18,447 nucleotides of DNA from a virus (taxonomy: Duplodnaviria; Heunggongvirae; Uroviricota; Caudoviricetes): IMG/VR virus record IMGVR_UViG_2778261463_000012, positions 1-18,447 of that record. One strand, given 5' to 3'. A program made the position numbers and the translations under genes. The notes beneath the pieces are model-generated. The model saw only the letters and a program-made list of their open reading frames with translations. It searched no databases and was not told where the DNA came from. This document shows positions 21 to 18,447 of the stretch, piece after piece. Within the stretch, counting starts at the first letter, position 1; the number at the start of each line of letters is the position of its first letter.

Positions 21-587
21 ATGTGTATCCACCTTAACTTAATGATTTTTACCAAAATCATTAGGGGATTCATCAGTGCCGAGGCCGTACAGCGACTTAA
101 TGATGGTGAATATGATTATCCATGCTGGCACGGTTTAAGAATCATGCAATGTATTGCGGAAGCCGATGATGCCGGATTGCTGGGAAGATTTTCAGTCGAT
201 CTGAAGGTTGCCCAGTGGCGCTGGCTGTATGTGGCGACGTTTATCAGTGAAGAGGAAGACAAGAACGGTACCATTGATATCCCTAACGATAACGGAACTA
301 CAGATCGCGCAGTTATTTATAAGGGGAAGCATGGTTGCCTGAGTATATACCCAGGACCACTTCGCATTGCCCTGCAAAACCATGTCGAATGGGGATTTAT
401 TGAAAAATATGGCGAAGCTGAAGGCATGGGGCGAGTTCTGTTTCTCTATCAAAAAATGCTCATCGCAGATCCTGATAATGGTTTCATTGTCTCTGCTATG
501 GGACGAGAAGGGCTTGAACTCCTTCTGGATGAAATGACTCACGATCTGAATACTCATGGTATACCAGAAGCACCAGTGACACATTAA
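21..587 (+). CDS. hypothetical protein (188 aa)
   Basis: Complete ORF; in-frame TGA at 6-8 upstream so the gene lies within the window. First gene of a co-directional cluster. No motif I can assign. Confidence 0.4.
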   Translation: MCIHLNLMIFTKIIRGFISAEAVQRLNDGEYDYPCWHGLRIMQCIAEADDAGLLGRFSVDLKVAQWRWLYVATFISEEEDKNGTIDIPNDNGTTDRAVIYKGKHGCLSIYPGPLRIALQNHVEWGFIEKYGEAEGMGRVLFLYQKMLIADPDNGFIVSAMGREGLELLLDEMTHDLNTHGIPEAPVTH

Positions 588-596
588 ATATTACAT

Positions 597-875
597 ATGG
601 CAAATCAGAATAAAATTAATGTATTTCAGGTTGAATCAAAACATAAAACACCTGTGATAAAACACGTTCGCCGCCATACACGCATCTATACGCCAGAAGA
701 GTTTATAGCAATGCCAATGATAAAGAAGTTTATTCGTGATAATCCCGATCACATTGCTATAGATAAAAATAATGGAGAAATAATGTTATCACGCGAACTT
801 GCCGAAATTTACTGTAACGTGAATAACAGTAAAAAGTTGAAAAAGGCAATCAGAAAGATATCAGGAGGAGCATGA
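597..875 (+). CDS. hypothetical small basic protein (92 aa)
   Basis: ORF 10 nt after the preceding stop; its stop overlaps the next start (ATGA at 872-875), suggesting translational coupling. No recognisable motif. Confidence 0.4.
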   Translation: MANQNKINVFQVESKHKTPVIKHVRRHTRIYTPEEFIAMPMIKKFIRDNPDHIAIDKNNGEIMLSRELAEIYCNVNNSKKLKKAIRKISGGA

Positions 876-1060
876 ATATTTATTTCAGAATAGTTATATC
901 ACTGGCAATTATCGCATGCATTTACGGATTACTCGTCCCGTTTCTGATATCAATGAAGGATACGGTAGCGGTAATTTCTGGCTTTGCACTGGCGTTTCTG
1001 ACCCCGCCATGCATTTATGCCATTTATAAGGGGCTTTCTTTCACTAAGGATAAAAGATGA
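872..1060 (+). CDS. small membrane protein, two predicted TM helices (62 aa)
   Basis: AGGAGG at 863-868 precedes ATG 872. Two hydrophobic stretches (IVISLAIIACIYGLLVPFLI and VISGFALAFLTPPCIYAIY). Stop overlaps the start of the SPFH gene (ATGA at 1057-1060). Confidence 0.55.
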   Translation: MNIYFRIVISLAIIACIYGLLVPFLISMKDTVAVISGFALAFLTPPCIYAIYKGLSFTKDKR

Positions 1061-1884
1061 AAAAAATTATTTTTTCTTTAGCCATTGTTCTGCCTGCCAT
1101 TGGCCTTGTCGGTTGTGATCGTGTTGAGCCTGGTAATGTGGGCATCAAAGTCAACAAACTTGGCGACGATAAAGGCGTAGGTGAAGTGGTCGGTGTTGGT
1201 CGCTACTGGACAGGCTGGAACACTGAAGTTTATATCTTCCCGACCTTTAAGCAGATGAAGACCTACGATGATCCATTCAGTTTCCAGATGAGCGATGGAA
1301 CAACCATTGGTTACCACATCGGAGTAGCCTACAAGGTTGATCCATCCAAAGTTACCACGGTGTTTCAAACCTACCGCAAAGGTGTGGATGACATTACCGA
1401 CACCGACCTGCGCCAGAAGATAGCAGATGCACTAAATCGGCTGGCCAGCAAAATGACCACTGATAAATTTATCGACGGTGGTAAATCTGAACTACTGGAT
1501 TCAGCTCTAAAAGATATTCAGGCAGAAATGACGCCCATCGGTATTCAGGTAATGAGCCTGTCTTATGTAGGTAAGCCGGAATACCCGTCAACTGTTATTG
1601 ACAGCATTAACGCTAAAGTCACGGCAAATCAGAAAACTCTTCAACGTGAGCAGGAAGTAAAACAGCGCGAAGCGGAAGCCAACATGTTGCGCGCGGAAGC
1701 TGCCGGACAGGCTGATGCGATTCGCACAAAAGCCCAGGCCGAAGCCGATGCTATTCGTTTACGCGGCGAAGCTCTGCGCCAGAACCCCGGTGTTATGGAG
1801 CTGGAAGCCATCAATAAATGGAACGGCACACTGCCGCAATACATGACCAACGGTGCCAGTACACCATTTATCCAGGTTAAATAA
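1057..1884 (+). CDS. SPFH/band-7 (prohibitin/HflC-like) family lipoprotein
   Basis: N-terminal signal peptide with lipobox (LVGC); central SPFH-like region; Ala/Glu/Arg/Gln-rich coiled-coil C-terminal segment (REQEVKQREAEANMLRAEAAGQADAIRTKAQAEADAIRLRGEAL) typical of band-7 proteins. AAGGA at 1046-1050. Confidence 0.8.
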   Translation: MKKIIFSLAIVLPAIGLVGCDRVEPGNVGIKVNKLGDDKGVGEVVGVGRYWTGWNTEVYIFPTFKQMKTYDDPFSFQMSDGTTIGYHIGVAYKVDPSKVTTVFQTYRKGVDDITDTDLRQKIADALNRLASKMTTDKFIDGGKSELLDSALKDIQAEMTPIGIQVMSLSYVGKPEYPSTVIDSINAKVTANQKTLQREQEVKQREAEANMLRAEAAGQADAIRTKAQAEADAIRLRGEALRQNPGVMELEAINKWNGTLPQYMTNGASTPFIQVK

Positions 1885-1923
1885 CTTATATGCCCGGCAA
1901 GCCGCCGGGCTAAGGGAAAGCAG

Positions 1924-2283
1924 ATGAACACTCATAATACTCAACCGAAAATAATGAACTATGACCCGAATCTGACGTCGTGCGGACGCATGGCAAAACA
2001 AACCGTTCGATTAACTTTCGGACTATGGGAATACCGCGAAACATTCGAAGTCACTGTCGGTGGCAACCTGACCGGACTCGATGTTATCAGTTGCGCTATT
2101 GAAAGCCTGTACGCAACGCTGCCTTATGAAGAAGTCGAGGATGAGCGCGATATCATAGCCACCATTAATATCGGCGGACTGGAATGCAAGGATGAAGACC
2201 TGCAGGGAGAACTCTGGCTTGCCGAGATGCTTGTATCCGCAGAAATAATCAGCATTGAGCCTGACACAGGCATACAACTCTGA
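1924..2283 (+). CDS. hypothetical acidic protein (119 aa)
   Basis: ORF co-directional with the cluster; no recognisable motif. Confidence 0.4.
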   Translation: MNTHNTQPKIMNYDPNLTSCGRMAKQTVRLTFGLWEYRETFEVTVGGNLTGLDVISCAIESLYATLPYEEVEDERDIIATINIGGLECKDEDLQGELWLAEMLVSAEIISIEPDTGIQL

Positions 2284-2313
2284 AATTCCATAAATTCAGG
2301 GAGCAATAGAAAA

Positions 2314-2556
2314 ATGTTCGCTTTGATTAATCAGGGGCAGCTATACACCGACAGTTCCGGTTACCCAATAAAAATTATTCGCTGCATAAACAGCACTGTG
2401 TTGTACAGAAGAATGGATGGGTTAACACAGTCGGTAAAAATAAACGATTTTAATGAACTGTTTGAACGGATCGATCACCAGGAATACCGACAAATTCTGG
2501 CAGAAACAGAGCAGGAAGCTCATCTGAAAAAATTACGAGCCATGAAAAGGAAGTAA
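2314..2556 (+). CDS. hypothetical protein (80 aa)
   Basis: ORF co-directional with the cluster; no recognisable motif. Confidence 0.35.
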   Translation: MFALINQGQLYTDSSGYPIKIIRCINSTVLYRRMDGLTQSVKINDFNELFERIDHQEYRQILAETEQEAHLKKLRAMKRK

Positions 2557-2712
2557 AGAATGAATAAAGCATTTGAACGATGAGTGCGCCAGCGTTATGG
2601 CAATCGCTATGACCTGACGAGAGATCTCGAAGGCTACTACTGCCGTGAAGTAGTGAAACGAATGTTTGAGGTGTGGTGTCACTGCCGCGGATAAAAGTTT
2701 TGTGAGGTAACT

Positions 2713-2928
2713 ATGTCTCTCAACATTGACTGTGTACCTATTACGACATGGTGTCGTGATATGGGAGAAACTCTGGATGCCGTTAACAAACGGTTACAAC
2801 GTGGAGTATGGGAGGAAGGGGTTCAGGTTTTAAATGTGGAAGGCTCCAAAGAACGATGGATTGATTTAACTGAGGTTTCAAAATGGGCGAGAAAAAACAA
2901 ATATCCTTATCACTCCCAAGAGGAATAA
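2713..2928 (+). CDS. putative excisionase-like small DNA-binding protein (71 aa)
   Basis: Small ORF immediately upstream of, and overlapping by 46 nt, a tyrosine integrase gene (classic xis-int arrangement). GAGGT precedes ATG 2713. Assignment is by context and size only. Confidence 0.4.
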   Translation: MSLNIDCVPITTWCRDMGETLDAVNKRLQRGVWEEGVQVLNVEGSKERWIDLTEVSKWARKNKYPYHSQEE

Positions 2929-4055
2929 CAATTCGTCAATACAAGAATTGCTCTACATTAGTTGTGACCTTCACCTATAAAGGGGTTCTTTGCAGGGAAC
3001 CCTTATCAAGGCTGGAAGTTAACGCAAAGGGGATTAAGTATGCTGAACGACTGCTCGGAGAAATAAAAAACAAAATTAGTGATGGCTCATTCGATTTTTC
3101 AGAGTACTTTCCAAACTCCAAGAAGCTTATATTATTTGGAATGGTAAAGAGGAATAAAAGTGTGAAAGATTACCTAGATGAATATTTAGAAATTTGCAAA
3201 AACAGAAAGTTATCCCCTTCAACAATAAATGGATATGAAAAATGTGTATCTGCATTATCGGAACTACATAACTTACATGTTATTGACCTGACTCCAGCAA
3301 TTTTAAAGAAATGGATTTCAAGAAGAACAACAAAACTGAAGACCATCAGAAACAATTTATCATTTTTAAGAAGCGCAGTAGATGAGGCTGTCACTGACGG
3401 ACTTATAACAATAAACCCTGTAAAACTAGTTAGTGCAAGTAGATACCATGCTGTTAACCATACAACCAATTCTGCCGAATATGAAGTAGACCCCTTTACG
3501 CCAGCAGAAGCAGCCGCTATCTACAACGCCTGTATCTATGAGGAATGGCGAAACCTTTTTTGTTTCGCATTCAATACAGGCCTTCGAAGCTCAGAATTAT
3601 GTGCATTACGTTGGTCTGATATTGATTTTATTGGTCATACCGTTCATGTACAGGTTGCTTCTGTCGTTGGTGTGATAAAAGGAACAAAAACAAAAGCTGG
3701 TACAAGAAAAGTTGAATTAAACAGTGAAGCCCTAATGGCATTACAGTCACAGAAATCATTTACGATGATGAGAAGTGCTTTTGTATTCAGTGACCCAAAG
3801 ACACGCAAACCGTGGGCTAATTCAGCAGCGATTCGTAAGAAAGCCTGGATCCCGACTCTTAAAAAAGCTGGTGTTCGTTACCGTAATCCATATCAGACCA
3901 GACATACATTCGCTACACGACATATCAGCCAGGGGGCAAATTTATTCTGGCTTGCAGGCCAAATGGGGCACAAAGGACCCGAAATGCTTTTTAGACACTA
4001 TGGTTCATATTTATCAGAATATGATGGTAATACAGCAATCTCAGAAGTAATCTAG
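2883..4055 (+). CDS. tyrosine recombinase / integrase (390 aa), AT-rich
   Basis: C-terminal catalytic region with the conserved box II pattern (RHTFATRHISQGANLFWLAGQMGHKGPEMLFRHYGSY; HxxR and terminal Tyr). Transcribed toward the ssrA-like att core at 4189-4214. Confidence 0.85.
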   Translation: MGEKKQISLSLPRGITIRQYKNCSTLVVTFTYKGVLCREPLSRLEVNAKGIKYAERLLGEIKNKISDGSFDFSEYFPNSKKLILFGMVKRNKSVKDYLDEYLEICKNRKLSPSTINGYEKCVSALSELHNLHVIDLTPAILKKWISRRTTKLKTIRNNLSFLRSAVDEAVTDGLITINPVKLVSASRYHAVNHTTNSAEYEVDPFTPAEAAAIYNACIYEEWRNLFCFAFNTGLRSSELCALRWSDIDFIGHTVHVQVASVVGVIKGTKTKAGTRKVELNSEALMALQSQKSFTMMRSAFVFSDPKTRKPWANSAAIRKKAWIPTLKKAGVRYRNPYQTRHTFATRHISQGANLFWLAGQMGHKGPEMLFRHYGSYLSEYDGNTAISEVI

Positions 4056-4188
4056 TCGCTTAAATATTTCAAAATATGTACAAAGGTAGGACACAGAATA
4101 GACCTTAACTTACACCTGAAATACATAAAAATATACAGTGAAATATGAAATCATTTGTATTTCATATTGTTATGTAATTTGGGTGTTT

Positions 4189-4214
4189 GGGTTCAACTCC
4201 CGCCAGCTCCACCA
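4189..4214 (+). other. att core: 26-nt copy of the tmRNA (ssrA) 3' end (GGGTTCAACTCCCGCCAGCTCCACCA); not a full tmRNA gene
   Basis: Exact match to the 3'-terminal 26 nt of E. coli tmRNA as I recall it, ending in CCA. The sequence upstream (4060-4188) is AT-rich and unrelated to tmRNA, so this is an attachment-site duplicate. Confidence 0.7.
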
Positions 4215-4250
4215 CTTGCTCTTCCGGATACGTCCGGAGAAATCCTGAAA

Positions 4251-4283
4251 GCCCGCATGGCACAAGCTCTGCGGGCTTTTTTG
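4251..4283 (+). terminator. rho-independent terminator (ssrA-type) downstream of att core
   Basis: Stem GCCCGCA (4251-4257) / TGCGGGC (4271-4277) followed by TTTTTT (4278-4283). Confidence 0.6.
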
Positions 4284-4398: not shown

Positions 4399-5598
4399 TT
4401 GGCAAGAACGACACGCCCCCTGACCAACACAGAAGTACTGCGCGCTAAAGCGTTAGAAAAGGATCTAACGTTGCATGATGGCGATGGTCTTTTTCTACTC
4501 GTTAAAACGAACGGTAAGAAGTTATGGCGTTTCCGTTATCAACGTCCGGCAACAAAGCAGCGGACAATGATGGGGCTAGGTACCTTCCCAGCTCTTTCAC
4601 TTGCTGACGCCCGACGGTTAAGAGCGGATTACCTTTCCTTGTTAGCCAACGGAATTGACCCGCAAATTCAAGCTGAAATTGCAGAGGAACAGCAGCAAAT
4701 CGCACAGGACAGTATTTTTACAACGGTCGCCGCTAACTGGTTCCAGCTTAAAAGCAAAAGCGTAACCCCTGATTACGCAAGAGACATTTGGCGCTCATTG
4801 GAGAAAGATGTATTCCCTGCCGTTGGTGAACTCCCAGTTCAGCAAATCAAAGCCCGAACGTTGGTTGAAGCGCTTGAGCCAGTCAAAGCTCGTGGGGCGC
4901 TAGAGACTGTACGTCGGCTAGTGCAACGCATTAACGAGATAATGATCTTTGCCGTAAATACAGGGCTGATCGATGCCAATCCAGCTTCCGGGGTTGGAAT
5001 GGCCTTTGAGAAGCCAAAAAAGCAAAACATGCCAACACTACGACCAGAAGAACTACCAAATCTAATGCGTTCTTTAGCCATGTCTAATTTATCTGTATCG
5101 ACTCGCTGCCTTATCGAATGGCAGCTTCTAACACTTGTACGCCCTTCTGAAGCCTCTGGTACTCAATGGGCAGAGATCGATCTTGAGAATAAACTCTGGA
5201 CGATCCCTGCAGGACGAATGAAAGCCAAGCGAGAACATATTGTTCCTCTGTCGGTTCGAGCATTAGATATTTTAGAGATAATGAAGCCTATTAGTGCACA
5301 TCGTGAATATGTTTTCCCAAGTAGAAATAATCCTAAGCAACCAATGAATAGTCAGACAGCTAATGCTGCATTAAAAAGAATTGGTTATGGAGGAAAGCTT
5401 GTTGCACATGGTTTGCGTTCTATAGCCAGTACAGCTATGAATGAGGAAGGTTTTAATCCCGATGTTATTGAAGCAGCATTAGCGCATAGCGATAAAAATG
5501 AAGTCCGTAAAGCATATAATCGTTCGACTTACCTTTATCAACGAATTGATTTAATGAATTGGTGGGCTAACTTCGTGTTTAAAAAAACACACGAATAG
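4399..5598 (+). CDS. int: P4-type tyrosine integrase (399 aa, TTG start)
   Basis: AAGGAG at 4385-4390 then TTG 4399. N-terminus MARTTRPLTNTEVLRAKA...DGDGLFLLV and C-terminal HGLRSIASTAMNEEGF...ALAHSDKNEVRKAYNRSTY match the P4/CP4-57 integrase architecture. Sits directly downstream of the ssrA 3'-end att core. Confidence 0.9.
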   Translation: MARTTRPLTNTEVLRAKALEKDLTLHDGDGLFLLVKTNGKKLWRFRYQRPATKQRTMMGLGTFPALSLADARRLRADYLSLLANGIDPQIQAEIAEEQQQIAQDSIFTTVAANWFQLKSKSVTPDYARDIWRSLEKDVFPAVGELPVQQIKARTLVEALEPVKARGALETVRRLVQRINEIMIFAVNTGLIDANPASGVGMAFEKPKKQNMPTLRPEELPNLMRSLAMSNLSVSTRCLIEWQLLTLVRPSEASGTQWAEIDLENKLWTIPAGRMKAKREHIVPLSVRALDILEIMKPISAHREYVFPSRNNPKQPMNSQTANAALKRIGYGGKLVAHGLRSIASTAMNEEGFNPDVIEAALAHSDKNEVRKAYNRSTYLYQRIDLMNWWANFVFKKTHE

Positions 5599-5611: not shown

Positions 5612-5634
5612 AGAGGCTGCTCAATGCAGCCATT
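5612..5634. terminator. probable bidirectional terminator between convergent int and cargo operon
   Basis: Hairpin GGCTGC (5615-5620) / GCAGCC (5626-5631), flanked by A-rich sequence upstream and T-rich downstream on the + strand. Confidence 0.4.
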
Positions 5635-6379
5635 ATTTCAATGAATTAATATACGTATTTAATCCTGTTGATTTTATAACTCCCATCACTTCTGGTGATT
5701 TTTTCAAATAAACAACATTAGGCCATGACAGATAAGCAATAATAATACATATTAGTCGAACCATTGCAAAATCAGACAGATTAATGAGAGTTTCAATATA
5801 CATATGTTTATCTTGCTCATCGAAACCATTTTCAGTTATAACTTCATTATCAACAAGTTTAACTGCAAGATAAAACCTTCTTGCAAATGAAAACATCTTA
5901 TCATCAGATTTATCATCTAATGATTCAATTATTTTAATCAAAGCATCTTCAGCAATACCTCTTTGAATACTGGTTTTAATCAGTTGCTCAAGTTTATTTA
6001 CAGCATTAACCTTTTTAACTTCAAAATCACCACTTGGAGATGGAAAAATCAAAGAGAAATCATCAAAAGCACTTTTTTGCGCGTTAATTAAATTATAAAA
6101 TTGAAATTCAAATGACTTCCTTTTATCAAGAAACTCCTGTCTTTTAGTCTCATTAATTAAACATTCATTCGCAGTTAATTGCATTTTAACTGATTTAATT
6201 AGAAGTAATATTGAAATGAAACTCAATATAGGATTAAGAACACCTCCAAAATAATCACCAAACTGTCCCCATATCTCTTTGTTTTCAGAAAGAGTGGTTG
6301 AGCTTCCACCAAATTGATAATAGTATAATCCAAAGACTACTAATATCAAAATAGATGTAACCCAACCTATATACCTCAT
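5633..6379 (-). CDS. membrane-anchored protein of unknown function (248 aa); downstream gene of the two-gene cargo operon
   Basis: Two N-terminal hydrophobic helices (IGWVTSILILVVFGLYYY and VLNPILSFISILLLIKSV) flank a Gly/aromatic-rich motif (WGQFGDYFGG); charged, probably helical C-terminal domain. Start overlaps the stop of the upstream gene (ATGA). GAGGTGG RBS. AT-rich. Confidence 0.65.
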   Translation of the reverse strand: MRYIGWVTSILILVVFGLYYYQFGGSSTTLSENKEIWGQFGDYFGGVLNPILSFISILLLIKSVKMQLTANECLINETKRQEFLDKRKSFEFQFYNLINAQKSAFDDFSLIFPSPSGDFEVKKVNAVNKLEQLIKTSIQRGIAEDALIKIIESLDDKSDDKMFSFARRFYLAVKLVDNEVITENGFDEQDKHMYIETLINLSDFAMVRLICIIIAYLSWPNVVYLKKSPEVMGVIKSTGLNTYINSLK

Positions 6380-7197
6380 ACCCCATCCACCTCAATAATT
6401 AAGTATTTCACTACCTCACCATTACTGATGGTTAAATCTCTAACTTTTAATAACAAATACTCTCGCTCTTCTTCTGCCAGTCTATTGTTAGCATCTAGAT
6501 TACTCGTTATTTTCTTGGTCTGGGCATCAGTAACGTATTTTAGACCATTCAAAAAACCAAAAGAAGTCGTTTTTTCTTCCCCCCTGACTAACAGTCTACC
6601 ATTTCCAGTAAAAGTATTAAACCTAGTAACTATAGCTTCTATCTGATGATCATGATTAGTTTCAATTAGCTCAGTTATATTCAAAGCGGTATTTTTGTTT
6701 AAAGTAATTATCTTTTGCTTCTCACCCGGCTTTCTATAATTCAAATCAACTGAATAGTTGCACATGGTGGAAATTTTATGCATATTTTTAAGTCTATTTC
6801 GAATAGCTTTAGTCAACTCATCTTCAATATCGTCTAATCCGGAAACCACTTTTTTTGCAGCGTCACTCAATGCCGGACCTTCTAAAAAAAGAGACTCATA
6901 AATATAATAACTCATAACTTCTGCAAATACAGTGCGAGTCATACTTGAAAGACGCGCTGCAACTTTTCTATCTGATATAACAACATCAAATCGCTGACCA
7001 AAAGAGCCTGTAAAAGAATGCTTAAGGTTTGTTCTTATTTCATTAGATTGATGTCTGTTTTCTTTAACTTTACCTCGAAGTATTGCCTCTGTAATAATAC
7101 TGGTAACTCCAGATGCACCCAATAGTGTCTGGAGAGCATAATCCATATCTATTTCATCGTCGCCGCTATTGATAACCAAATCAAGACTAACTTTCAT
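6376..7197 (-). CDS. protein of unknown function (about 273 aa); upstream gene of the two-gene cargo operon
   Basis: ORF track gives 6376-7245, but GGGGAAA precedes the ATG at 7197 (MKVSLDLV...), which I prefer as the start. Soluble; no Walker or other catalytic motif I can assign. AT-rich, unlike the P4 backbone. Confidence 0.6.
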   Translation of the reverse strand: MKVSLDLVINSGDDEIDMDYALQTLLGASGVTSIITEAILRGKVKENRHQSNEIRTNLKHSFTGSFGQRFDVVISDRKVAARLSSMTRTVFAEVMSYYIYESLFLEGPALSDAAKKVVSGLDDIEDELTKAIRNRLKNMHKISTMCNYSVDLNYRKPGEKQKIITLNKNTALNITELIETNHDHQIEAIVTRFNTFTGNGRLLVRGEEKTTSFGFLNGLKYVTDAQTKKITSNLDANNRLAEEEREYLLLKVRDLTISNGEVVKYLIIEVDGV

Positions 7198-7333
7198 TAT
7201 TTCCCCACGAATTGATAAAAATCTGCTCAATGAATAAAAGTCCATATTTTTATACAGTAATCAAACTTCCAATGTCTAAAATATGCAAACACATTAAACT
7301 AAATTTATGATAGTGATCAACATATTGCGCGCA

Positions 7334-9824: not shown

Positions 9825-12158
9825 ATGAAAATGAACGTAACCGCCACCGTCAGCCATGCGCTCGGCCACTGGCCGCGTATTCTCCCGGCGCTGGGGATTC
9901 AGGTGCTGAAGAACCGTCATCAGCCCTGTCCGGTCTGTGGCGGGAGTGACCGCTTCCGTTTTGATGACAGGGAGGGGCGCGGCACCTGGTACTGCAATCA
10001 GTGTGGTGCCGGTGACGGCCTGAAACTGGTTGAAAAGGTGTTTGGTGTCTCCCCGTCCGACGCGGCCGCAAAAGTGGCTGCCGTGACCGGCAGCCTGCCC
10101 CCGGCTGACCCGGCAGTGACGGCTGCCGCCGGTGCTGAAACAGACGCTGCCCGGAAGAACGCAGCCGCACTGGCACAAACCCTGATGGCGAAAACCTGTC
10201 CCGGAACCGGTAACGCCTACCTGACCCGCAAGGGCTTTCCCGGCCGGGAATGCCGGATGCTGACCGGCACACACAGAGCCGGTGGCGTGAGCTGGCGCGC
10301 CGGTGACCTTGTGGTGCCACTGTATGACGACAGCGGCGAACTGGTTAACCTTCAGTTAATCAGTGCTGACGGCCGTAAGCGCACTCTGAAAGGCGGACAG
10401 GTCAGGGGCACCTGTCACACCTTTGAAGGACAGAATCAGGCCGGAAAACGTCTGTGGATAGCGGAGGGATACGCGACCGCACTTACCGTGCATCACCTGA
10501 CCGGTGAAACGGTGATGGTGGCGCTTTCTTCCGTGAACCTCCTTTCTCTGGCCAGCCTTGCCCGGCAGAAGTATCCGGCCTGTCAGATTGTCCTTGCCGC
10601 AGACCGTGACCTCAGCGGTGACGGCCAGACAAAAGCCGCCGCAGCCGCAGATGCGTGTGAGGGCGTTGTTGCCCTGCCGCCGGTCTTCGGTGACTGGAAT
10701 GATGCCTTCACGCAGTACGGCGGGGAGGCCACCCGTAAGGCCATTTACGATGCCATCCGGCCACCGGCTGAAAGCCCGTTCGACACCATGAGCGAAGCGG
10801 AGTTTTCCGCCATGAGTACCAGCGAAAAGGCCATGCGTATCTATGAGCATTACGGCGAGGCGCTCGCGGTCGATGCCAACGGCCAGCTTCTGTCCCGCTA
10901 TGAAAATGGTGTCTGGAAGGTGCTGCCGCCACAGGACTTTGCCCGGGATGTGGCCGGGCTGTTTCAGCGTCTGCGCGCGCCGTTCTCCTCCGGGAAGGTG
11001 GCCTCCGTGGTGGACACCCTGAAGCTGATTATTCCGCAGCAGGAAGCCCCCTCCCGCCGCCTGATTGGCTTTCGTAACGGCGTGCTCGACACGCAGAACG
11101 GCACGTTCCACCCGCACAGTCCGTCACACTGGATGCGCACCCTGTGCGATGTGGATTTCACCCCGCCGGTGGACGGTGAAACGCTGGAGACCCACGCCCC
11201 CGCGTTCTGGCGCTGGCTTGACCGTGCCGCCGGTGGCCGTGCGGAAAAACGCGACGTGATTCTGGCCGCACTGTTTATGGTGCTGGCGAACCGCTACGAC
11301 TGGCAGCTCTTTCTGGAGGTGACCGGTCCCGGCGGCAGCGGCAAAAGTATCATGGCCGAAATAGCCACCCTGCTGGCCGGGGAGGATAACGCCACGTCGG
11401 CCACCATCGAGACGCTGGAATCCCCGCGTGAACGTGCCGCGTTAACTGGCTTCTCACTGATACGCCTGCCGGACCAGGAAAAATGGAGCGGCGACGGTGC
11501 CGGACTCAAGGCCATCACCGGCGGCGATGCGGTGTCCGTGGACCCGAAATACCGGGATGCGTACTCCACGCATATCCCGGCGGTGATTCTGGCCGTGAAC
11601 AATAACCCGATGCGCTTCACCGACCGCAGCGGCGGCGTGTCACGCCGGCGGGTGATTATTCACTTCCCGGAACAGATAGCCCCGCAGGAGCGCGACCCGC
11701 AGCTTAAGGACAAAATCACCCGCGAGCTGGCGGTCATCGTGCGTCACCTGATGCAGAAGTTCAGCGACCCGATGCTCGCCCGGTCACTGCTTCAGTCCCA
11801 GCAGAACTCAGACGAGGCACTGAACATCAAACGGGATGCCGACCCGACGTTTGATTTTATCGGCTATCTGGAAACCCTGCCGCAGACCAGCGGCATGTAT
11901 ATGGGGAACGCCAGTATCATCCCGCGCAATTACCGTAAATACCTCTATCACGCCTATCTGGCCTACATGGAGGCAAACGGCTACCGGAATGTACTCAGCC
12001 TGAAAATGTTCGGGCTGGGGCTGCCGGTGATGCTGAAGGAATACGGACTGAATTACGAGAAGCGCCATACCAAACAGGGGATACAGACCAACCTGACGCT
12101 GAAAGAGGAAAGCTACGGCGACTGGCTGCCAAAATGTGACGACCCTGCAACAACCTGA
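9825..12158 (+). CDS. alpha: P4 alpha-type primase-helicase (777 aa)
   Basis: N-terminal zinc-binding motif (CPVCGGSDRFRF...WYCNQCGAGDG), a TOPRIM-like primase region (LWIAEGYATALT...VLAADRDLSGDGQ) and a Walker A box (TGPGGSGKS) of a C-terminal helicase domain. Length equals that of P4 alpha; followed by terminator and crr repeats. Confidence 0.9.
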   Translation: MKMNVTATVSHALGHWPRILPALGIQVLKNRHQPCPVCGGSDRFRFDDREGRGTWYCNQCGAGDGLKLVEKVFGVSPSDAAAKVAAVTGSLPPADPAVTAAAGAETDAARKNAAALAQTLMAKTCPGTGNAYLTRKGFPGRECRMLTGTHRAGGVSWRAGDLVVPLYDDSGELVNLQLISADGRKRTLKGGQVRGTCHTFEGQNQAGKRLWIAEGYATALTVHHLTGETVMVALSSVNLLSLASLARQKYPACQIVLAADRDLSGDGQTKAAAAADACEGVVALPPVFGDWNDAFTQYGGEATRKAIYDAIRPPAESPFDTMSEAEFSAMSTSEKAMRIYEHYGEALAVDANGQLLSRYENGVWKVLPPQDFARDVAGLFQRLRAPFSSGKVASVVDTLKLIIPQQEAPSRRLIGFRNGVLDTQNGTFHPHSPSHWMRTLCDVDFTPPVDGETLETHAPAFWRWLDRAAGGRAEKRDVILAALFMVLANRYDWQLFLEVTGPGGSGKSIMAEIATLLAGEDNATSATIETLESPRERAALTGFSLIRLPDQEKWSGDGAGLKAITGGDAVSVDPKYRDAYSTHIPAVILAVNNNPMRFTDRSGGVSRRRVIIHFPEQIAPQERDPQLKDKITRELAVIVRHLMQKFSDPMLARSLLQSQQNSDEALNIKRDADPTFDFIGYLETLPQTSGMYMGNASIIPRNYRKYLYHAYLAYMEANGYRNVLSLKMFGLGLPVMLKEYGLNYEKRHTKQGIQTNLTLKEESYGDWLPKCDDPATT

Positions 12159-12174
12159 CCATCATGACTCATCT

Positions 12175-12199
12175 GACCGGCATCTGCCGGTCTTTTTTT
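12175..12199 (+). terminator. rho-independent terminator of alpha
   Basis: Stem GACCGG (12175-12180) / CCGGTC (12187-12192) followed by TTTTTTT (12193-12199). Confidence 0.6.
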
Positions 12200-12216
12200 A
12201 TCCCTGAATTCCCCGA

Positions 12217-12515
12217 AGGTGAACAATCCACTGTTCACCCTTCACCGTATATTCACCCGTTATCACACTGAAATTAAAAGAGAAAAACGAAAGGTGAACA
12301 GTGTGAACAATCAAATCAAAAAAAACTTTTTTTCTCCCTGTGTGATTTCAGTACGGGGGATTAATCACCGGTATGAGTCACACCGGCAGAATGCCGGAGG
12401 TGAAGAATCGAATGTTCACCCTTCACCCATTATTCACCACCTATCACTCTGAAATAAAAGGAGAAAATCAAAGAGTGAACAGTGTGAACAGTTCTTTCGA
12501 AAAAAAATTTTTTTC
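12217..12515. repeat. crr-like region: two direct repeats of about 120 bp about 60 bp apart, carrying TGTTCACC/GGTGAACA iterons
   Basis: Unit 1 about 12217-12335 and unit 2 about 12398-12515 align almost base for base (e.g. ATGTTCACCCTTCACC... and ...GTGAACAGTGTGAACA... followed by A-run/T-run). This matches the P4 crr organisation and the alpha-binding octamer TGTTCACC. Confidence 0.7.
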
Positions 12516-12577
12516 CTGTACGATATAGCATCAATCCAAGTAAAAATGCGCTTTCATTTCACATTAACTTACAGCCA

Positions 12578-12599
12578 TTGGTATACGATTAGGTATACG
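12578..12599. promoter_or_regulatory. single copy of the GGTATACG-containing arm repeat (candidate Int arm-type site) near the right end of the P4-like element
   Basis: TTGGTATACGATTAGGTATACG differs by one base from the left arm at 4327-4348. Confidence 0.35.
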
Positions 12600-12652
12600 C
12601 ACAAAAACTGAATTAAACAAAATCGTTAAAAATCAAAGCGATACAATATTTA

Positions 12653-12674
12653 TTCAAACTCCGCCAGCCCACCA
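12653..12674 (+). other. degenerate second copy of the tmRNA 3'-end att core (TTCAAACTCCGCCAGCCCACCA)
   Basis: Related to 4192-4214 with a few substitutions/indels, ending in CCA, followed by the same type of terminator and by a second P4-type integrase gene. Confidence 0.55.
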
Positions 12675-12710
12675 ATTTTTGATATATTGAAGTTCAGTGA
12701 AGTCTATCAA

Positions 12711-12742
12711 GCCCGCATGGAACCAGCCTTGCGGGCTTTTTT
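12711..12742 (+). terminator. rho-independent terminator (ssrA-type) after second att core
   Basis: Stem GCCCGCA (12711-12717) / TGCGGGC (12730-12736) followed by TTTTTT (12737-12742); near-identical to the stem at 4251-4277. Confidence 0.55.
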
Positions 12743-12840
12743 ACGTCTATAGTAGTCTACCGAGAATTGCTAGAATCTACTCGTTATGGCACCCTTTTTG
12801 GGACCCAACACAAAGGGTCCAAAACATGAGGGTCCCAAAC

Positions 12841-14070
12841 ATGGCAAAAATCGCTAAGAAGCTCACTGACACTGAAATCAAAAGCACCAAACCTGCCGAG
12901 AAAGAGGTTAACCTTTTTGACGGCGATGGTTTGCTCCTGCGAATCGCCCCCTTAGCGAAGGGAGGAAAGAAAAATTGGTATTTCAGATATGCAGTGCCTG
13001 TGACCAAAAAGCGAACTAAGGTGAGCTTAGGAACCTATCCTCACCTTACACTTGCGAAGGCACGAGCTTTACGTGATGAGTACTTGTCGTTGCTTGCAAA
13101 TGGTATAGACCCACAAGTTCATAACACCCACAAAGCCAATGCCCTTAAGGATGCAACGGAACATACATTTCAAGCAGTAGCCAAGAAGTGGCTTGATGAG
13201 AAAGTCAAAACGTCAGGCATCTCCCAGGATCATGCTAACGACATCTGGCGAAGCCTAGAGAGAAATATCTTTCCAACGTTGGGTGATACCCCCATTAAGG
13301 AGATTCGCCCTAAAATGCTTAAACAGCATTTAGACCCCATAGAAAAACGAGGTGTCCTTGAAACACTTCGCCGCGTCATATCCCGCCTGAATGAAATTTT
13401 CCGCTATGCAGCAACAGAAGAACTCATAGAATTCAATCCGGCTGACAACCTGGGGCAACGGTTCAGCAAGCCAAAAAAACAGAATATGCCAGCATTACCC
13501 CCTTCCGAACTCCCCCGCTTCCTGGTTGCTCTAAACAATGCTTCTATCCGTTTAGAAACAAGGCTACTGATTGAGTGGCAACTTCTCACATGGGTTCGCC
13601 CTGGTGAAGCTGTTCGCACAAGATGGTCAGATATTGATATAGAAACCAGCATGTGGAACATCCCGGCGGAGTTTATGAAAATGAAGAAGCCTCACAAAGT
13701 TCCACTGAGCAAAGAATCTTTGCGAGTCTTGGATTCAATGAAAGCCATCAGCGGGCATAGAGAGTGGGTTTTTCCCAGTATCAAAGCTCCACTCAATCAC
13801 ATGCATGAACAAACAGCTAATGCGGCTATAATCCGTATGGGCTTCGGAGGTGAGCTTGTAGCTCATGGTATGCGATCAATCGCTAGAACGGCGGCTGAGG
13901 AGTGTGGCAAGTTTAGAACTGATGTCTTAGAAGCCGCCCTTGCCCACTCGAAAAAAGATGAAATAATTGCAGCCTACAATCGTGCAGAGTATCTCACAGA
14001 ACGTGTGGTTCTCATGCAATGGTGGAGTGACTATGTTTCGTCTCAAAAATACAAAGTTATTGCCGCATAA
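12841..14070 (+). CDS. int: P4-type tyrosine integrase, second copy (409 aa from MAKIAKKL)
   Basis: The ORF is open from 12697, but the N-terminus MAKIAKKLTDTEIKSTKPAEKEVNLFDGDGLLLRI aligns with the start of the integrase at 4399, and GAGGG precedes ATG 12841. C-terminal catalytic region HGMRSIARTAAEE...ALAHSKKDEIIAAYNRAEY. Paralog of the 4399-5598 integrase, clearly diverged. Confidence 0.85.
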   Translation: MAKIAKKLTDTEIKSTKPAEKEVNLFDGDGLLLRIAPLAKGGKKNWYFRYAVPVTKKRTKVSLGTYPHLTLAKARALRDEYLSLLANGIDPQVHNTHKANALKDATEHTFQAVAKKWLDEKVKTSGISQDHANDIWRSLERNIFPTLGDTPIKEIRPKMLKQHLDPIEKRGVLETLRRVISRLNEIFRYAATEELIEFNPADNLGQRFSKPKKQNMPALPPSELPRFLVALNNASIRLETRLLIEWQLLTWVRPGEAVRTRWSDIDIETSMWNIPAEFMKMKKPHKVPLSKESLRVLDSMKAISGHREWVFPSIKAPLNHMHEQTANAAIIRMGFGGELVAHGMRSIARTAAEECGKFRTDVLEAALAHSKKDEIIAAYNRAEYLTERVVLMQWWSDYVSSQKYKVIAA

Positions 14071-14352
14071 CTCTTCCATGATGGGTTAACTATCTTGATT
14101 TATTTGAAGAATTAATGATCACACCATTAACCTATGTGGACTAAGCATAGCCATTTACAAATGGGTACCTTGAGGCCACATAACGAAAGCTGTCGGTCAT
14201 ATCAGCTAAATAATTCACATCTCTTCTCGATTATCATACACCTCGAAGAACTACCAAATTCGCTCTAATCAATGATAAAACAGTTGAATTCGGTTAAAAT
14301 TTGATCAATTTTATCCTCTACATTGTATTGAATCATCCATGAGGTTTTGTGC

Positions 14353-15909
14353 ATGGCTAGCGGAAATGAAAAAAATCATAGAGTTAGGGTCGCACAGTAC
14401 TTGAGGATGTCTACCGACCATCAGCAATATTCTTTACATAATCAGTCTGAATATATCAAAGATTATGCTGAAAAGAACAATATGGAAATCGCTTATACCT
14501 ACGATGATGCAGGTAAGAGCGGAGTCAGTATCGTAGGCAGGCATTCTTTGCAGCAGTTACTTAGCGATGTAGAACAAAAGAAAATAGATATACAGGCTGT
14601 ATTATTTTATGATGTGAGCCGTTTTGGTCGTTTTCAAAATAGTGATGAAGCTGCATATTATTCCTTTCTATTTGAAAGAAATGGTGTAGATCTTATATAT
14701 TGTTCCGAACCTATACCCACTAAAGATTTCCCTTTAGAGTCCTCTGTTATACTGAATATAAAAAGATCAAGTGCTGCATATCACAGCAGGAATCTATCTG
14801 AAAAGGTATTTATAGGGCAAGTAAATTTAATAAAGCTTGGTTATCATCAAGGCGGTATGGCTGGTTATGGGCTGAGACGTCTTTTAGTAGACGAAAATGG
14901 CATAGCTAAAGAAATATTGAATTTCCGCAAAAGAAAGAGTATTCAAACAGATAGGGTAATATTAATTCCGGGACCAAAAAATGAAATAAAAATTGTAAAT
15001 AGAATCTATGATCTCTTTATAGATAGTAACGTCCCAGAATTCATTATTGCTGAGAGATTAAATGAACAGAGCATACCTGCAGAAAATGGAACATCATGGA
15101 CTCGTGCAAAAATACATCAAATTTTGACAAATGAAAAATATATTGGAAACAACATATATAACAAAACCTCATCTAAACTAAAAAGTAAGCTTGTAAAAAA
15201 CCCCAAACATGAATGGATTAGATGTGACAAGGCATATAAACCAATTATTTCAAAGAAAAAATATAATAAAGCTCAAGAAATAATTCAGCTCCGATCCATT
15301 CATTTGACTAATGAAGATCTATTAGAAAAGCTAAAAGAAAAATTAGAATCTAATGGAAAACTATCAGGCTTTATCATTGATGAAGATGATACAGGCCCTT
15401 CATCTTCTGTTTATAGAACCCGATTTGGTGGTCTTTTAAGAGCATATACTTTGATTGGTTATAAGCCAGAACATGATTACAGCTATCTCCAAATAAATGA
15501 AGCACTAAGATCATTTTACTCAGAGATAATTGAGGATTTTAAGGGCGAAATATTAAAAAGTAACTGTCATATAGACGAGTATAAATATTACCCAATGCTT
15601 TACATCAATGATGAGTTTTTAATTTCCGTCCTTGTTACTAAATGCATACATATGAAATCAGGTAAACTTAGATGGAAAGTCCGGTTTGATAACTCACAGA
15701 AAGCAGACATAACAATTGTTATACGAATGAATTCACAAAATATTTCACCTCTTGATTTTTATATCATACCAAAGATTGAAAACGAATATAGTAAAATGTG
15801 TATGATGGAAACAAACAACATTCGGTTAGATCTCTATAGATTTGATAATCTTGATAAATTTCTACAAATTATTACTCGCATGAAAGTGAGGGAACTATAT
15901 GCTGCCTGA
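14353..15909 (+). CDS. large serine recombinase (about 518 aa)
   Basis: N-terminal resolvase-type catalytic domain (VAQYLRMSTDHQ with the presumptive catalytic Ser; YDDAGKSG; DVSRFGR) and a recombinase domain (GYGLRR...SWTRAKIHQILTNEKYIGN), then a long C-terminal extension. GAGG at 14341-14344 precedes ATG 14353 (ORF track starts at TTG 14347). Very AT-rich. Confidence 0.8.
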   Translation: MASGNEKNHRVRVAQYLRMSTDHQQYSLHNQSEYIKDYAEKNNMEIAYTYDDAGKSGVSIVGRHSLQQLLSDVEQKKIDIQAVLFYDVSRFGRFQNSDEAAYYSFLFERNGVDLIYCSEPIPTKDFPLESSVILNIKRSSAAYHSRNLSEKVFIGQVNLIKLGYHQGGMAGYGLRRLLVDENGIAKEILNFRKRKSIQTDRVILIPGPKNEIKIVNRIYDLFIDSNVPEFIIAERLNEQSIPAENGTSWTRAKIHQILTNEKYIGNNIYNKTSSKLKSKLVKNPKHEWIRCDKAYKPIISKKKYNKAQEIIQLRSIHLTNEDLLEKLKEKLESNGKLSGFIIDEDDTGPSSSVYRTRFGGLLRAYTLIGYKPEHDYSYLQINEALRSFYSEIIEDFKGEILKSNCHIDEYKYYPMLYINDEFLISVLVTKCIHMKSGKLRWKVRFDNSQKADITIVIRMNSQNISPLDFYIIPKIENEYSKMCMMETNNIRLDLYRFDNLDKFLQIITRMKVRELYAA

Positions 15910-16795
15910 AAAAAATGAATTCCCAATAATTCAAATTGAGATTGCAAAAATAAAATTTCTTAACCCACGAACAAGAAATAAGGTAGTGCATGAAGAAATA
16001 AAGGAAAGCATAAAAAAAAGAGGATTAAGCAAGCCTATAAGCGTAAGAGCTATTGATGAAGACGATTTCAAATATGCTTTAATTTGTGGTCAAGGGAGAA
16101 TAGAGGCTCTTGTTGCATTAGGTGAAACTATTATTCCAGCAATTATAAGAGATGTATCAGAAGAAGATGCTTACGTTATGAGTTTAGTTGAAAACATTGC
16201 AAGGAGAAGACCACGTTCTAATGAGTTATTACAGGTGATTAAAGACATGAAAATCAGAGGACTTTCAGACTCCGAAATAAGTGAGATTACTGGATATTCA
16301 TCGAACTGGGTGAGCAGTATTAATATGCTTCTTGATAAGGGAGAGCATAAACTTCTCTCAGCAGTCGAACGGGGTAATTTGCCTCTGTATCTCGCAGTGC
16401 AATTTGCAAGATGTGAAACTGAGGAAGCACAAGATATTCTTACCGAAGCATATGATAAAAAATTAATAAAAAGTCGGGACATTATAAAGATAAAATACAT
16501 TCTAAATCAAAGAACAGTTGGGAATAAAGGTGCAAAAGCAGCCGGATTTTATTATCACAAACCATCAAAAAGGATGACTGCAGAGGAGTTGATTGAGCTT
16601 TATGAAAATAGTATCGCTGAACATAAATCTGTTTATAACAACTCGAAATTTATAAAAACCAATCTACTAATAATAAATGAGATTTTTAACATCATAATGA
16701 TGAATAAAAGCTTTCAAAATATACTTGAACAAGAGAATCTTTCAGAACTACCATCTCAGATATTAAACCCAGTAAACAAAGAGGTATCAAAATGA
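15899..16795 (+). CDS. ParB/Srx-superfamily (ParB N-terminal domain-like) protein, paralog 1 (298 aa)
   Basis: ParB-like N-terminal motifs (PISVRAIDEDDFKYALICGQGRIEAL; ENIARR). Start overlaps the recombinase stop by 11 nt; RBS GTGAGGGA. Confidence 0.7.
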   Translation: MLPEKNEFPIIQIEIAKIKFLNPRTRNKVVHEEIKESIKKRGLSKPISVRAIDEDDFKYALICGQGRIEALVALGETIIPAIIRDVSEEDAYVMSLVENIARRRPRSNELLQVIKDMKIRGLSDSEISEITGYSSNWVSSINMLLDKGEHKLLSAVERGNLPLYLAVQFARCETEEAQDILTEAYDKKLIKSRDIIKIKYILNQRTVGNKGAKAAGFYYHKPSKRMTAEELIELYENSIAEHKSVYNNSKFIKTNLLIINEIFNIIMMNKSFQNILEQENLSELPSQILNPVNKEVSK

Positions 16796-17688
16796 TTCAG
16801 ATACGTTTTGGCAAAAATTTTATTTACCTGGAAACTAATAAGTTAATTCCATCTAAGGAATTATTAGAAAACGTAAAGCGAAGCCATAAATATCATCAAA
16901 TAGTTACCTCTATCGAAAGCTTGGGTATTATTGAACCAATAATAGTATTCTATGACAAAGATAAAGATGTCACTAAGATACTTGATGGCCATTTAAGGGT
17001 TGAGGCTTTAAAAGACTTAGATATAGAAAAAGCTCCATGTATACTTTCGAGCATAGATGATGCTTTCACTCCTAACAAACAAGTGAATCATATAAATGTA
17101 GTTGAAGAACATAGAATCATAATTAAGTCTCTGGCAAAAGTATCAATTGAAAAACTTAGTGCTGCTTTGGGCATATCTGTTGATGCCATAAAAGATAAAG
17201 CTAATGTGATGAACGGCATAGATCCAAGTGTAATTGCGAAACTTTCTGATAAACCTATACCTAAGGCTACATTTGACGTTTTGAGGAAAATGAAGCCAAT
17301 TCGTCAAATTGAAGCAGTCGGTACAATGATTAATTTTGATAATTATAGTAAAAAATTTGCAATGAGCATCTTGGATGCAACACCGTCATCGATGATAGTA
17401 AATAAAGGGAAAAACACTCCCTATAAAAAGGACATAAAAAAAACCATACTTCGTCTGGAACAAGAAATGGCAACAACTTCGGAAGAAACGAAAAAACTTC
17501 AAACCGAGTATGGTTCAGATATGTTGAAATTCGTTATAATCCAGTCATATATTAATAAATTACTTGGCAACTCTAAAGTTCTTCATTGGTTCTTAGAAAA
17601 CGAGGTTGATTATCTTAATGAGTTAAAAAGAATTTCTAGAATAAATTCTTTGGATGATAAGACTCTTACTGAAAACAGCCAGTCATAG
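16792..17688 (+). CDS. ParB/Srx-superfamily (ParB N-terminal domain-like) protein, paralog 2 (298 aa)
   Basis: ParB-like N-terminal motifs (IIEPIIVFYDKDKDVTKILDGHLRVEAL; VVEEHR). ATGA overlap with the preceding gene; RBS AGAGG. Same length as paralog 1. Confidence 0.7.
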   Translation: MIQIRFGKNFIYLETNKLIPSKELLENVKRSHKYHQIVTSIESLGIIEPIIVFYDKDKDVTKILDGHLRVEALKDLDIEKAPCILSSIDDAFTPNKQVNHINVVEEHRIIIKSLAKVSIEKLSAALGISVDAIKDKANVMNGIDPSVIAKLSDKPIPKATFDVLRKMKPIRQIEAVGTMINFDNYSKKFAMSILDATPSSMIVNKGKNTPYKKDIKKTILRLEQEMATTSEETKKLQTEYGSDMLKFVIIQSYINKLLGNSKVLHWFLENEVDYLNELKRISRINSLDDKTLTENSQS

Positions 17689-18241
17689 TCATGGTTTTAT
17701 ATAGCCTAAATAAACCAAGAAGTATACTTACACAACGACCTTCACGCCGAAGAAGCTGTCAGATACGCCAGCAACCAAAGCATTGCGTTTAAGAGTCAGT
17801 CATTGATACGAAGGGATAACTGCGTATCAGCAGCCGGACATTGAGTCGAATAAAGGCTGGTAGAGAGGGACAGTTCTGTGTCACCGGGAGATTAGTCAGA
17901 AACATCAGCGGCAGAACAGATGAACCAGCAATTGGTAGTGTACAGAAAACTCTCCAGTATATAATTATTCAACTTAACACTAAAAAAATCACATAGTTAA
18001 TATCATAATTTTTCTTTGGTCTACTTATGCGAGAGATATTGTGGCTTCAACCTGGTATTAGGAGTCGTTTCAGATAAAAGATGTTCTTCGATTCGACTGG
18101 ACTTGGTAATAGCAATAAGTAATCGTGAATATTGAAGGACGAAAGGCTACTTCAAAACAAAGTAACCTTTCCAATATTCCCATATATGGGACAAGTGGCA
18201 CATTAACTGCACATAGTGCAGGATACATATGACATAAAACT

Positions 18242-18447
18242 TAGACTGGCCCCCTGAATCTCCAGACAACCAATATCACTTAAATAAGTGATAGTCTTAA
18301 TACTAGTTTTTAGACTAGTCATTGGAGAACAGATGATTGATGTCTTAGGGCCGGAGAAACGCAGACGGCGTACCACACAGGAAAAGATCGCAATTGTTCA
18401 GCAGAGCTTTGAACCGGGGATGACGGTCTCCCTCGTTGCCCGGCAAC
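18242..18447 (+). mobile_element. IS2 (IS3 family) left end, truncated by the window edge
   Basis: Terminal sequence TAGACTGGCCCCCTGAATCTCCAGACAACCAATATCACTTAAATAAGTGATAGTC matches the IS2 left inverted repeat region as I recall it, followed by the start of the IS2 OrfA gene. Confidence 0.8.
18333..18447 (+). CDS. insC: IS2 transposase OrfA (InsC), N-terminal 38 codons; partial
   Basis: Translation [38 protein letters not shown] matches the IS2 OrfA N-terminus. GGAGAA precedes ATG 18333. Confidence 0.8.

Follow-up and report, generated by a model that had tools for sequence, protein, structure and literature searches.

What might a serine recombinase be doing in one operon with two ParB-like proteins, directly behind the integrase of a genomic island? 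The question is raised by an 18,447-nt stretch of DNA (the window, meaning the whole stretch analysed) that is filed as a tailed virus under IMG/VR record IMGVR_UViG_2778261463_000012, and in which a model given the letters alone (the sequence-only reading) had singled out three tandem genes, here called SR, ParB-A and ParB-B. The window represents the ssrA (tmRNA) island hotspot of the Escherichia coli chromosome: its right two-thirds aligns with many E. coli genomes, in which ssrA is followed by a P4-like satellite (integrase, cargo, psu, delta, sid, alpha primase) and then by a second island that the trio opens. We propose, with a probability of about 40%, that these three genes form a self-contained module for site-specific recombination at the edge of integrative islands and prophage-adjacent accessory regions, with the ParB pair as DNA-binding accessory factors. 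As to function, the sequence-only reading had left the choice between a nested mobile element and a ParB module under recombinase control; the evidence leans towards an island recombination module, a reading that is unproven.

The three overlapping open reading frames (ORFs) were confirmed (Table 1), as was their location directly downstream of the second P4-type integrase. A foreign, AT-rich origin had also been proposed, and the GC fraction is indeed 0.30–0.36 over 14501-17500 versus 0.53–0.64 in the adjoining replication genes of the P4-like satellite. SR begins with an ATG at 14353, with GAGG 8 nt before it. RefSeq annotates a 409-aa coding sequence at the position equivalent to the integrase and names the trio products ‘recombinase family protein’ and ‘ParB/RepB/Spo0J family partition protein’, with nothing more specific.

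The assignment of the first gene to the serine recombinases, complete with a recombinase domain, proved correct: SR matches Pfam Resolvase (PF00239, 7.6e-22) and Recombinase (PF07508, 5.3e-22, residues 210-312), and its closest phage family is the PHROG integrase family phrog_95 (E 7e-69). Alignments of 24 and of 50 family members show no variation at Y16, R18, S20 (the catalytic serine), D87, R90 and R93, and the last 200 residues are likewise well conserved in both. Foldseek searches with the AlphaFold model returned complexes of SPbeta SprA and Bxb1 integrase (9dxd and 9iu2; E 9e-15 to the SprA complexes) in alignments of only ~320 columns, which span the catalytic and recombinase domains. 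The C-terminal domain (approximately residues 313-518) found no match in Pfam, PDB sequences or Foldseek; no Pfam match of any kind (E ≤ 0.01) lies past residue 312, and residues 313-518 hold no CxxC pair. In phage serine integrases, the zinc-ribbon and coiled-coil set site choice and directionality. Because residues ~313-518 are unmatched and carry no zinc-ribbon, SR is large-serine-recombinase-like yet fails one defining feature of that family. Its NCBIfam scores for CcrB (64.5 bits) and CcrC (41.6 bits) compare with cut-offs of 900.

That the second and third genes encode ParB/Srx-fold proteins also held, by different routes for the two. ParB-A consists of a ParB N-terminal NTPase-fold domain and a central helix-turn-helix (HTH): it matches Pfam ParB_N (PF02195, 1.6e-13) and RepB (2.7e-7), scores 61.7 bits with TIGR00180, above the 58.45 cut-off, and aligns with PDB sequences of Spo0J, ParB, Noc and KorB over residues 8-190, through the HTH (21-200 for Spo0J). 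In 21 sequences, NPRxR, CG[QE]GRxEA and SLxENxxR are invariant; in the GERR box the first Arg is replaced by Gly, and the ENxxR box is present. ParB-B matches Pfam RepB (4.6e-23) and falls slightly under the ParB_N cut-off (24.2 versus 26.3 bits), while its AlphaFold model, with a predicted local distance difference test score (pLDDT) of 77, matches ParB/Noc/KorB over ~200 columns (E 8e-9). Its layout is a degenerate ParB N-domain, an HTH region and a RepB-type C-terminal region with a long helix. Of the arginine motifs that the sequence-only reading had seen in both proteins, ENxxR and the GR motif are invariant in ParB-A; the ParB-B family alignment has an invariant DGHLRxEA and no ENxxR. 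The ‘same-length paralogs’ are indeed equally long (298 aa each), but their similarity is limited to 30% identity over 63 N-domain residues in BLASTP (E 0.003); they are only remote paralogs.

Neither protein can be placed in a partition system of the usual kind with any ease. ParB-A and ParB-B have no repA or repC neighbours in the loci inspected, no ParA-type ATPase is among the genes conserved in the 77 ordered loci described below, and no ATPase gene occurs at 12000-18447 of the window; classical partition is unlikely because the ParA partner is absent. Apart from the recombinase and, outside the Enterobacterales, a small HTH gene, nothing is conserved together with the ParB pair. Scores with the RepB models are far below their cut-offs (TIGR03454, 37 bits against a cut-off of 201.5; PRK13866, 21 against 522).

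The trio itself is widespread. Of 5426 complete E. coli genomes, 660 contain its 3.7-kb region, at 661 places (median one per genome), all chromosomal and none on a plasmid, and always linked to the P4-type integrase seen in the window; at least 80% of the query is kept in 620 of the 660. When a chimera of the left and right flanks served as query, no E. coli record brought the integrase side and the downstream side together with the trio missing; this collection contains no empty site. In E. coli B the order is ssrA-integrase-trio-IS1-glaH, the island being reduced to integrase and trio, and this copy is apparently shared by BL21(DE3)-type derivatives (both flanks are present in C43(DE3) and Rosetta2(DE3)). 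Beyond E. coli, a ParB-B profile scan of one genome per species found relatives in at least 539 species, and in 77 of the 80 loci kept from it SR, ParB-A and ParB-B follow in the same order, abutting or overlapping, the other three being truncated remnants. The same three genes in the same order in so many loci of other species argue that the trio is not a chance assembly, and the co-conservation that the sequence-only reading depended on extends over Alpha-, Beta- and Gammaproteobacteria and a Thermoanaerobaculia (Acidobacteria) metagenome-assembled genome. ParB-B relatives with E ≤ 1e-30 form 443 clusters at 50% identity; homologues of the recombinase number in the thousands. In human faeces, a 7.5-kb ‘Bacteriophage sp.’ scaffold (L214, MT837206.1, positions 884-4201, minus strand) carries a complete trio (517/298/301 aa) with ~43–55% protein identity to an alphaproteobacterial trio (L033) and/or that of the window; the module is thus also present in bins of gut metagenomes that carry a viral label.

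Selection on the three genes is purifying. Against variants ~94–95% identical to the window, in which all three ORFs are intact, the ratio of non-synonymous to synonymous substitution rates (dN/dS) was 0.17–0.18 for SR, 0.05–0.06 for ParB-A and 0.07–0.08 for ParB-B; over all comparisons it was 0.17–0.25, 0.05–0.31 and 0.07–0.35, respectively. The neighbouring integrase is disrupted by IS3 in one variant locus (L212) and truncated in another (L008), with the trio intact in both, which indicates that the trio is maintained independently of the integrase. These values bear directly on whether the E. coli trio is a functionless passenger, the decaying remnant of an older element beside the integrase. 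Being single-copy, having no visible att repeats, often lying next to cargo that is deleted or ridden with insertion sequences, and being truncated in strain A30, it could look like one; yet most carriers keep the region, the three ORFs stay intact in divergent variants at dN/dS down to 0.05, and different phyla share its gene order, overlaps and motifs, so we consider such a passenger very improbable.

The distribution also bears on whether the trio maintains excised islands or plasmids, SR resolving multimers and the ParB proteins acting in centromere binding, KorB-like silencing or anti-silencing. Homology to ParB, RepB, KorB and Noc spans both the N-domain and the HTH; ParB-B homologues are found on 103 PLSDB plasmids, 69 of them conjugative and including pAtC58 of Agrobacterium fabrum C58, which carries the full trio amid AbiEii, Fic and restriction genes; and the island of E. 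coli strain 300709 carries a relaxase and is therefore probably mobilisable as a circle. Set against this are the missing ParA-type ATPase, the 661 of 661 E. coli places that are chromosomal, the low score with the RepB equivalog, the persistence of the module in E. coli B with no island left, and the nature of SR, which is large-serine-recombinase-like and not a small resolvase with a C-terminal HTH. On balance a maintenance function seems rather unlikely. Multi-copy matches on Sinorhizobium plasmids were considered as a sign of active transposition and rejected: the copy examined, on pSymA of strain Rm41 (L091), is a ParB-B pseudogene fragment with neither recombinase nor ParB-A, and the others are split in pieces.

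The flanks show the setting of the module. In Rhodobacteraceae and relatives, blocks of ~3.5–4.1 kb are 85–93% identical in DNA between genera, with sharp limits (from the stop of a divergent HTH gene to a terminal dyad) and unrelated flanks. High identity between genera, sharp boundaries and unrelated flanks together indicate that the module relocates as a unit. The two sides differ: the 5 kb upstream hold a mixed set of ORFs, among them transporters of chromosomal type (AcrB, MFS, LysE, HlyD, MlaA), whereas the downstream ORFs belong to restriction–modification, toxin–antitoxin and defence (ResIII, HipA, McrBC, HsdM, DUF6119, SNF2, WYL), with PADLOC matches to mad2, type I methyltransferases, DrmD, ZacC, BrxH and DpdE. 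Such asymmetry is the position expected of an integration module at an island edge. Ten IMG/VR provirus predictions start within the trio and run downstream, where DNA methylases and phage tail and structural genes follow, and in several independent enterobacterial subtypes a P4-type integrase lies within ~5 kb of the trio in either orientation. Relocating blocks, flank asymmetry, provirus starts and integrase proximity combined place the module at the edge of accessory regions.

The same flanks invite another reading of the trio, possible in our view but doubtful: a so far unrecognised defence against phages or plasmids, in which the ParB-type proteins would sense invading DNA or load onto it, for SR to cut or rearrange. 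The trio occupies the integrase-proximal cargo position of P4-type islands; adjoining genes encode dCTP deaminase, NACHT, TIGR04141/Hxs, AbiEii, Fic and restriction proteins, and the 112 downstream ORFs from other species are rich in restriction–modification, DISARM, Zorya, BREX and Dpd components. Defence genes abound at island edges in any case, however, so that guilt by association is weak here. The intact trio beside a dead integrase (dN/dS 0.05–0.18) and the divergent HTH regulator of many relatives, a common trait of defence operons, would fit as well, but PADLOC-DB 2.0 has no match for SR or ParB-A, ParB-B meets a type II methyltransferase model weakly (23.9 bits) and over its ParB-like N-domain only, and we found no paper on the trio as such a system. 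An intact copy resides in E. coli B, the classical permissive host of T phages; a full recombinase domain architecture would be unusual for an effector; and the conserved cis elements and relocation as a unit suggest action on the cassette’s own DNA.

Candidate cis elements are found at both ends of the E. coli cassette. Its leader has a promoter-like site at 14272-14300 and a 7-bp inverted repeat, TAAAATT-TGATC-AATTTTA (14295-14313), which is a candidate operator, and is 89–94% identical in another E. coli variant. The 3′ flank holds a perfect 10-bp palindrome, AAGTATACTT, at 17720-17729, and it is shortly after this palindrome, 55 nt past the ParB-B stop, that cargo variants A and B diverge. 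In variant B (L008:13126-13407) the 3′ fragment of another integrase, starting near its HGMRS box, follows ~70 nt further on. Aligned enterobacterial flanks contain no conserved non-coding motifs across subtypes, and enterobacterial loci share no dyad downstream of ParB-B.

Relatives outside the Enterobacterales carry extra parts. In 49 of their loci a small divergent ORF (~120–135 aa, weak HTH matches, motifs MSFPKKGK and WTGAxERTVKNWF) lies directly upstream of the recombinase, replaced in some lineages by a DeoR/HTH_11-type protein and absent from the window copy, and 31 loci have a palindrome, CGGAAACGAC[AT]TTCCGG, ~160 nt ahead of the recombinase gene. The ParB-B stop is immediately followed by a non-coding tail of 135–230 nt whose conservation exceeds that of the genes. 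Its core forms six helices, with 98% of cells paired and 14 pairs changed on both sides; none of 500 shuffles attained such values, and the signal collapsed when partners were slid. G-U pairs are tolerated on the sense strand, which suggests an RNA transcribed in the direction of the operon. The 3′ end reads ...GGAGCCCACCA, and the tail terminates in a dyad, GGGCGTGCCGG...CCGGCACGCCC, whose arm sequence is itself conserved. Covariance model R1 placed the tail after ParB-B in ~48 genome loci and gave no match in the window or the enterobacterial loci; scanning metagenomes with the tail core yielded 75 tails, mostly after a trio, ~12 of them solo and five after a 3′ remnant of ParB-B only. Identity with a tRNA, tmRNA or other known RNA was considered and rejected, ARAGORN returning nothing and Rfam no match.

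It is at this sequence-conserved terminal dyad, with no T-run after it, that cargo breaks in the relatives. On an alphaproteobacterial metagenome contig (L150:6891-7282) a tyrosine-integrase 3′ fragment begins from the HxLRH box directly after the dyad, and elsewhere (L102:683-1968) an intact P4-type integrase is followed 7 nt on by a solo tail; with L008, tyrosine-integrase 3′ ends thus recur beside the tail or the right end of the cassette. The idea that the cassette brings its own replacement integrase 3′ end, with an identity jump expected at the HxxR box, was dropped because the variants show no identity discontinuity from integrase to trio. In L029, direct tail copies at 10889-11021 and 17650-17782 surround a gene for a 1652-aa NERD-protein kinase-SF1 helicase and a 560-aa ORF, a layout that resembles a gene cassette, and in L060 a ~160-nt repeat starting in the dyad surrounds a two-gene insertion missing from L071. 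Short tail-derived repeats downstream of the module were convincing in L029 and L060 only, and a recurring 14-nt match within ParB-B is probably one inherited coincidence. These junctions are suggestive of recombination at the right end of the module.

Taking these junctions further, one could picture an RNA-associated platform for cargo capture, in which a ParB-A/ParB-B complex and, outside the Enterobacterales, the tail RNA position SR, and cassettes of mostly defence genes are inserted or excised at the terminal dyad. We hold this to be improbable; if true, it would amount to an integron equivalent built on a serine recombinase, or to a recombinase guided by its partners.

The reading we prefer, a site-specific recombination module, would work as follows. 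SR would be the catalyst and use the chemistry of large serine recombinases, in which the serine nucleophile makes double-strand cuts and subunit rotation follows, while its C-terminal domain and the ParB pair would take over the functions of the missing zinc-ribbon and coiled-coil. ParB-A, with its CTP-type motifs, and the degenerate ParB-B would bind DNA beside the recombination site, probably as a hetero-oligomer, and would control where and in which direction SR acts. As the likely outcome, the island would be integrated or excised, or the variable cargo beginning right downstream of the cassette would be exchanged. In the E. coli window, the module sits immediately after the P4-type integrase of the ssrA island, and it stays intact even where that integrase is dead. 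Domain content, intact catalytic residues, strict co-conservation with translational coupling, purifying selection, relocation as a unit and the island-edge position are observed, whereas we infer the recombination itself, the sites used and the part played by the ParB pair.

Several observations weigh against this proposal. The analysis demonstrated neither a product of recombination nor an empty site or att pair, and the flanking inverted or direct repeats that the sequence-only reading had suggested as recombinase sites did not rise above noise around the cassette, either in the window or in four related loci. In E. coli the trio is single-copy (at most two places per genome) and never apart from a tyrosine integrase, which alone could explain the mobility of the island there. 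The SR model is of moderate quality only (pLDDT 70.6). The L029, L060, L102 and L150 junctions are single cases that ordinary deletions or duplications could yield. Finally, purifying selection that persists with the island reduced (E. coli B) or the integrase disrupted fits a host-beneficial or addictive function equally well or better.

Table 1 Features of the recombinase–ParB cassette, its context in the window and additional parts in relatives
Feature	Position	Strand	Remarks
P4-type tyrosine integrase	12841-14070	+	Pfam Arm-DNA-bind_3, Phage_int_M, Phage_integrase; context, outside the trio
Operon leader, intergenic, 282 nt	14071-14352	.	Promoter-like site, inverted repeat, GAGG
Serine recombinase (SR)	14353-15909	+	518 aa, large-serine-recombinase-like; RefSeq length also 518 aa
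ParB-A	15899-16795	+	298 aa; 11-nt overlap with SR
ParB-B	16792-17688	+	298 aa; 4-nt ATGA overlap with ParB-A
Cassette 3′ flank, conserved	17689-17743	.	Ends just past the 10-bp palindrome; candidate cis site
Divergent HTH-like gene (relatives)	L090:6128-6535; L003:5041-5424; L006:5057-5416	-	Plus 46 other loci
Structured tail RNA (relatives)	L033:7469-7683; L004:6939-7153; L006:8923-9137	.	L004 and L006 are among ~120 loci besides L033

The rest of the window offered observations of its own. Positions 1-4055 form a further element: it has a truncated RNA-OUT, the end of an IS10, at 1-31, phage-like ORFs, one of them (1057-1884) for an SPFH/Band-7 protein, and at 2883-4055 a tyrosine integrase of another type (Arm-DNA-bind_2); with this third integrase, the window holds three tandem integrase-bearing elements. 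Related leaders precede both P4-type integrases (4158-4282 and 12555-12742), each with a GC hairpin and T-run (66-nt repeat, 74%) and sub-threshold Rfam matches to IsrM. Between the satellite integrase (4399-5598) and psu, a known cargo hotspot, two overlapping AT-rich genes (5633-7245, minus strand; 248 and 289 aa) have no Pfam match, match only PHROG families with unassigned function (phrog_8999 and phrog_13337) and give a weak PADLOC match to PDC-S25 (1.2e-5); they are a candidate for an uncharacterised defence pair borne by the satellite. A 122-nt direct repeat (12213-12334 and 12394-12515; 80% identity, 181-nt spacing) between the satellite primase and the second integrase probably belongs to the end of the satellite or its att region. 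At the right margin, 18243-18447 is the left end of IS2, homology to insertion-free strains ending at 18242, with an orfA-like ORF from 18333.

Serine integrases are major genome-engineering tools, and to our knowledge the way in which they choose site and direction is understood solely for the zinc-ribbon/coiled-coil type with small recombination directionality factors (RDFs). Here, a large and ancient family has, in place of the zinc-ribbon/coiled-coil apparatus, a new C-terminal domain and two dedicated ParB-fold proteins, joined in many lineages by a structured RNA. Control of recombination by the ParB pair, if true, would give the ParB CTPase fold a new role and serine recombinases a new form of regulation; a defence or addiction function would instead mean a new system overlooked by screens, perhaps on account of the ‘mobilome’ look of its genes. 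What makes the trio truly interesting is its wide spread, its strong constraint and its presence in model strains, and the intact copies in E. coli B and on pAtC58 make it directly testable.

How, then, does the trio compare with known systems? The large serine recombinases (phiC31, Bxb1, SPbeta SprA and TP901-1, as well as CcrB and TnpX) are alike in their N-terminal catalytic domain with serine nucleophile and conserved Arg and Asp, their long alpha-E helix, PF07508 and a size of ~500 aa. Unlike the large serine integrases, SR has no zinc-ribbon or coiled-coil, its residues ~313-518 forming a family-specific helical and beta domain, and it is always co-encoded with two ParB-fold proteins where those integrases have a small RDF; with the CcrB, CcrC and IS607 equivalog models it scores far under the cut-offs. 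The CTP-dependent clamps ParB, Spo0J, Noc and KorB, and RepB of repABC, are similar in placing an HTH after a ParB/Srx NTPase fold; ParB-A shares NPRxR, GxGR and ENxxR with the clamps, and both trio proteins match Pfam RepB. Unlike those systems, the trio comes with no ParA/RepA partner, repC or identified parS, and consists of two divergent tandem copies, one with a degenerate nucleotide pocket and both coupled to a recombinase; in E. coli its ParB genes are chromosomal, unlike the plasmid-borne RepB of repABC. Multimer resolution of the RK2 parCBA and Tn3 types offers another parallel, a serine recombinase co-transcribed with DNA-acting accessory proteins as a stability cassette on mobile DNA, but employs small resolvases with a C-terminal HTH, and the ParB of RK2, a protein of the thermonuclease type, has no relation to the ParB/Srx fold.

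Literature searches, including by RefSeq protein accessions, found no description of the trio, PADLOC contains no named system for it, and its NCBIfam matches are generic or far below threshold. The nearest published analogue is the ‘integration module’ (DsiB/DsiA) of the Dehalococcoides ssrA islands (PMC3146451), in which a CcrB-like large serine recombinase is combined with a ParBc-domain protein and a tRNA-like element. Both pair a large serine recombinase with a ParBc protein at the edge of ssrA islands, and the tRNA-like element parallels the structured RNA tail of the trio’s non-enterobacterial relatives. The Dehalococcoides module, however, has six genes, among them a second small recombinase, RecF-like, Mom and primase-like genes, and a single short ParBc protein (PMC3146451), whereas the trio has exactly two ParB/RepB-type proteins of 300 aa and no second recombinase, and the E. 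coli island, unlike the Dehalococcoides module, integrates via a tyrosine integrase. Set beside these systems, the cassette is an uncharacterised variant assembled from known families.

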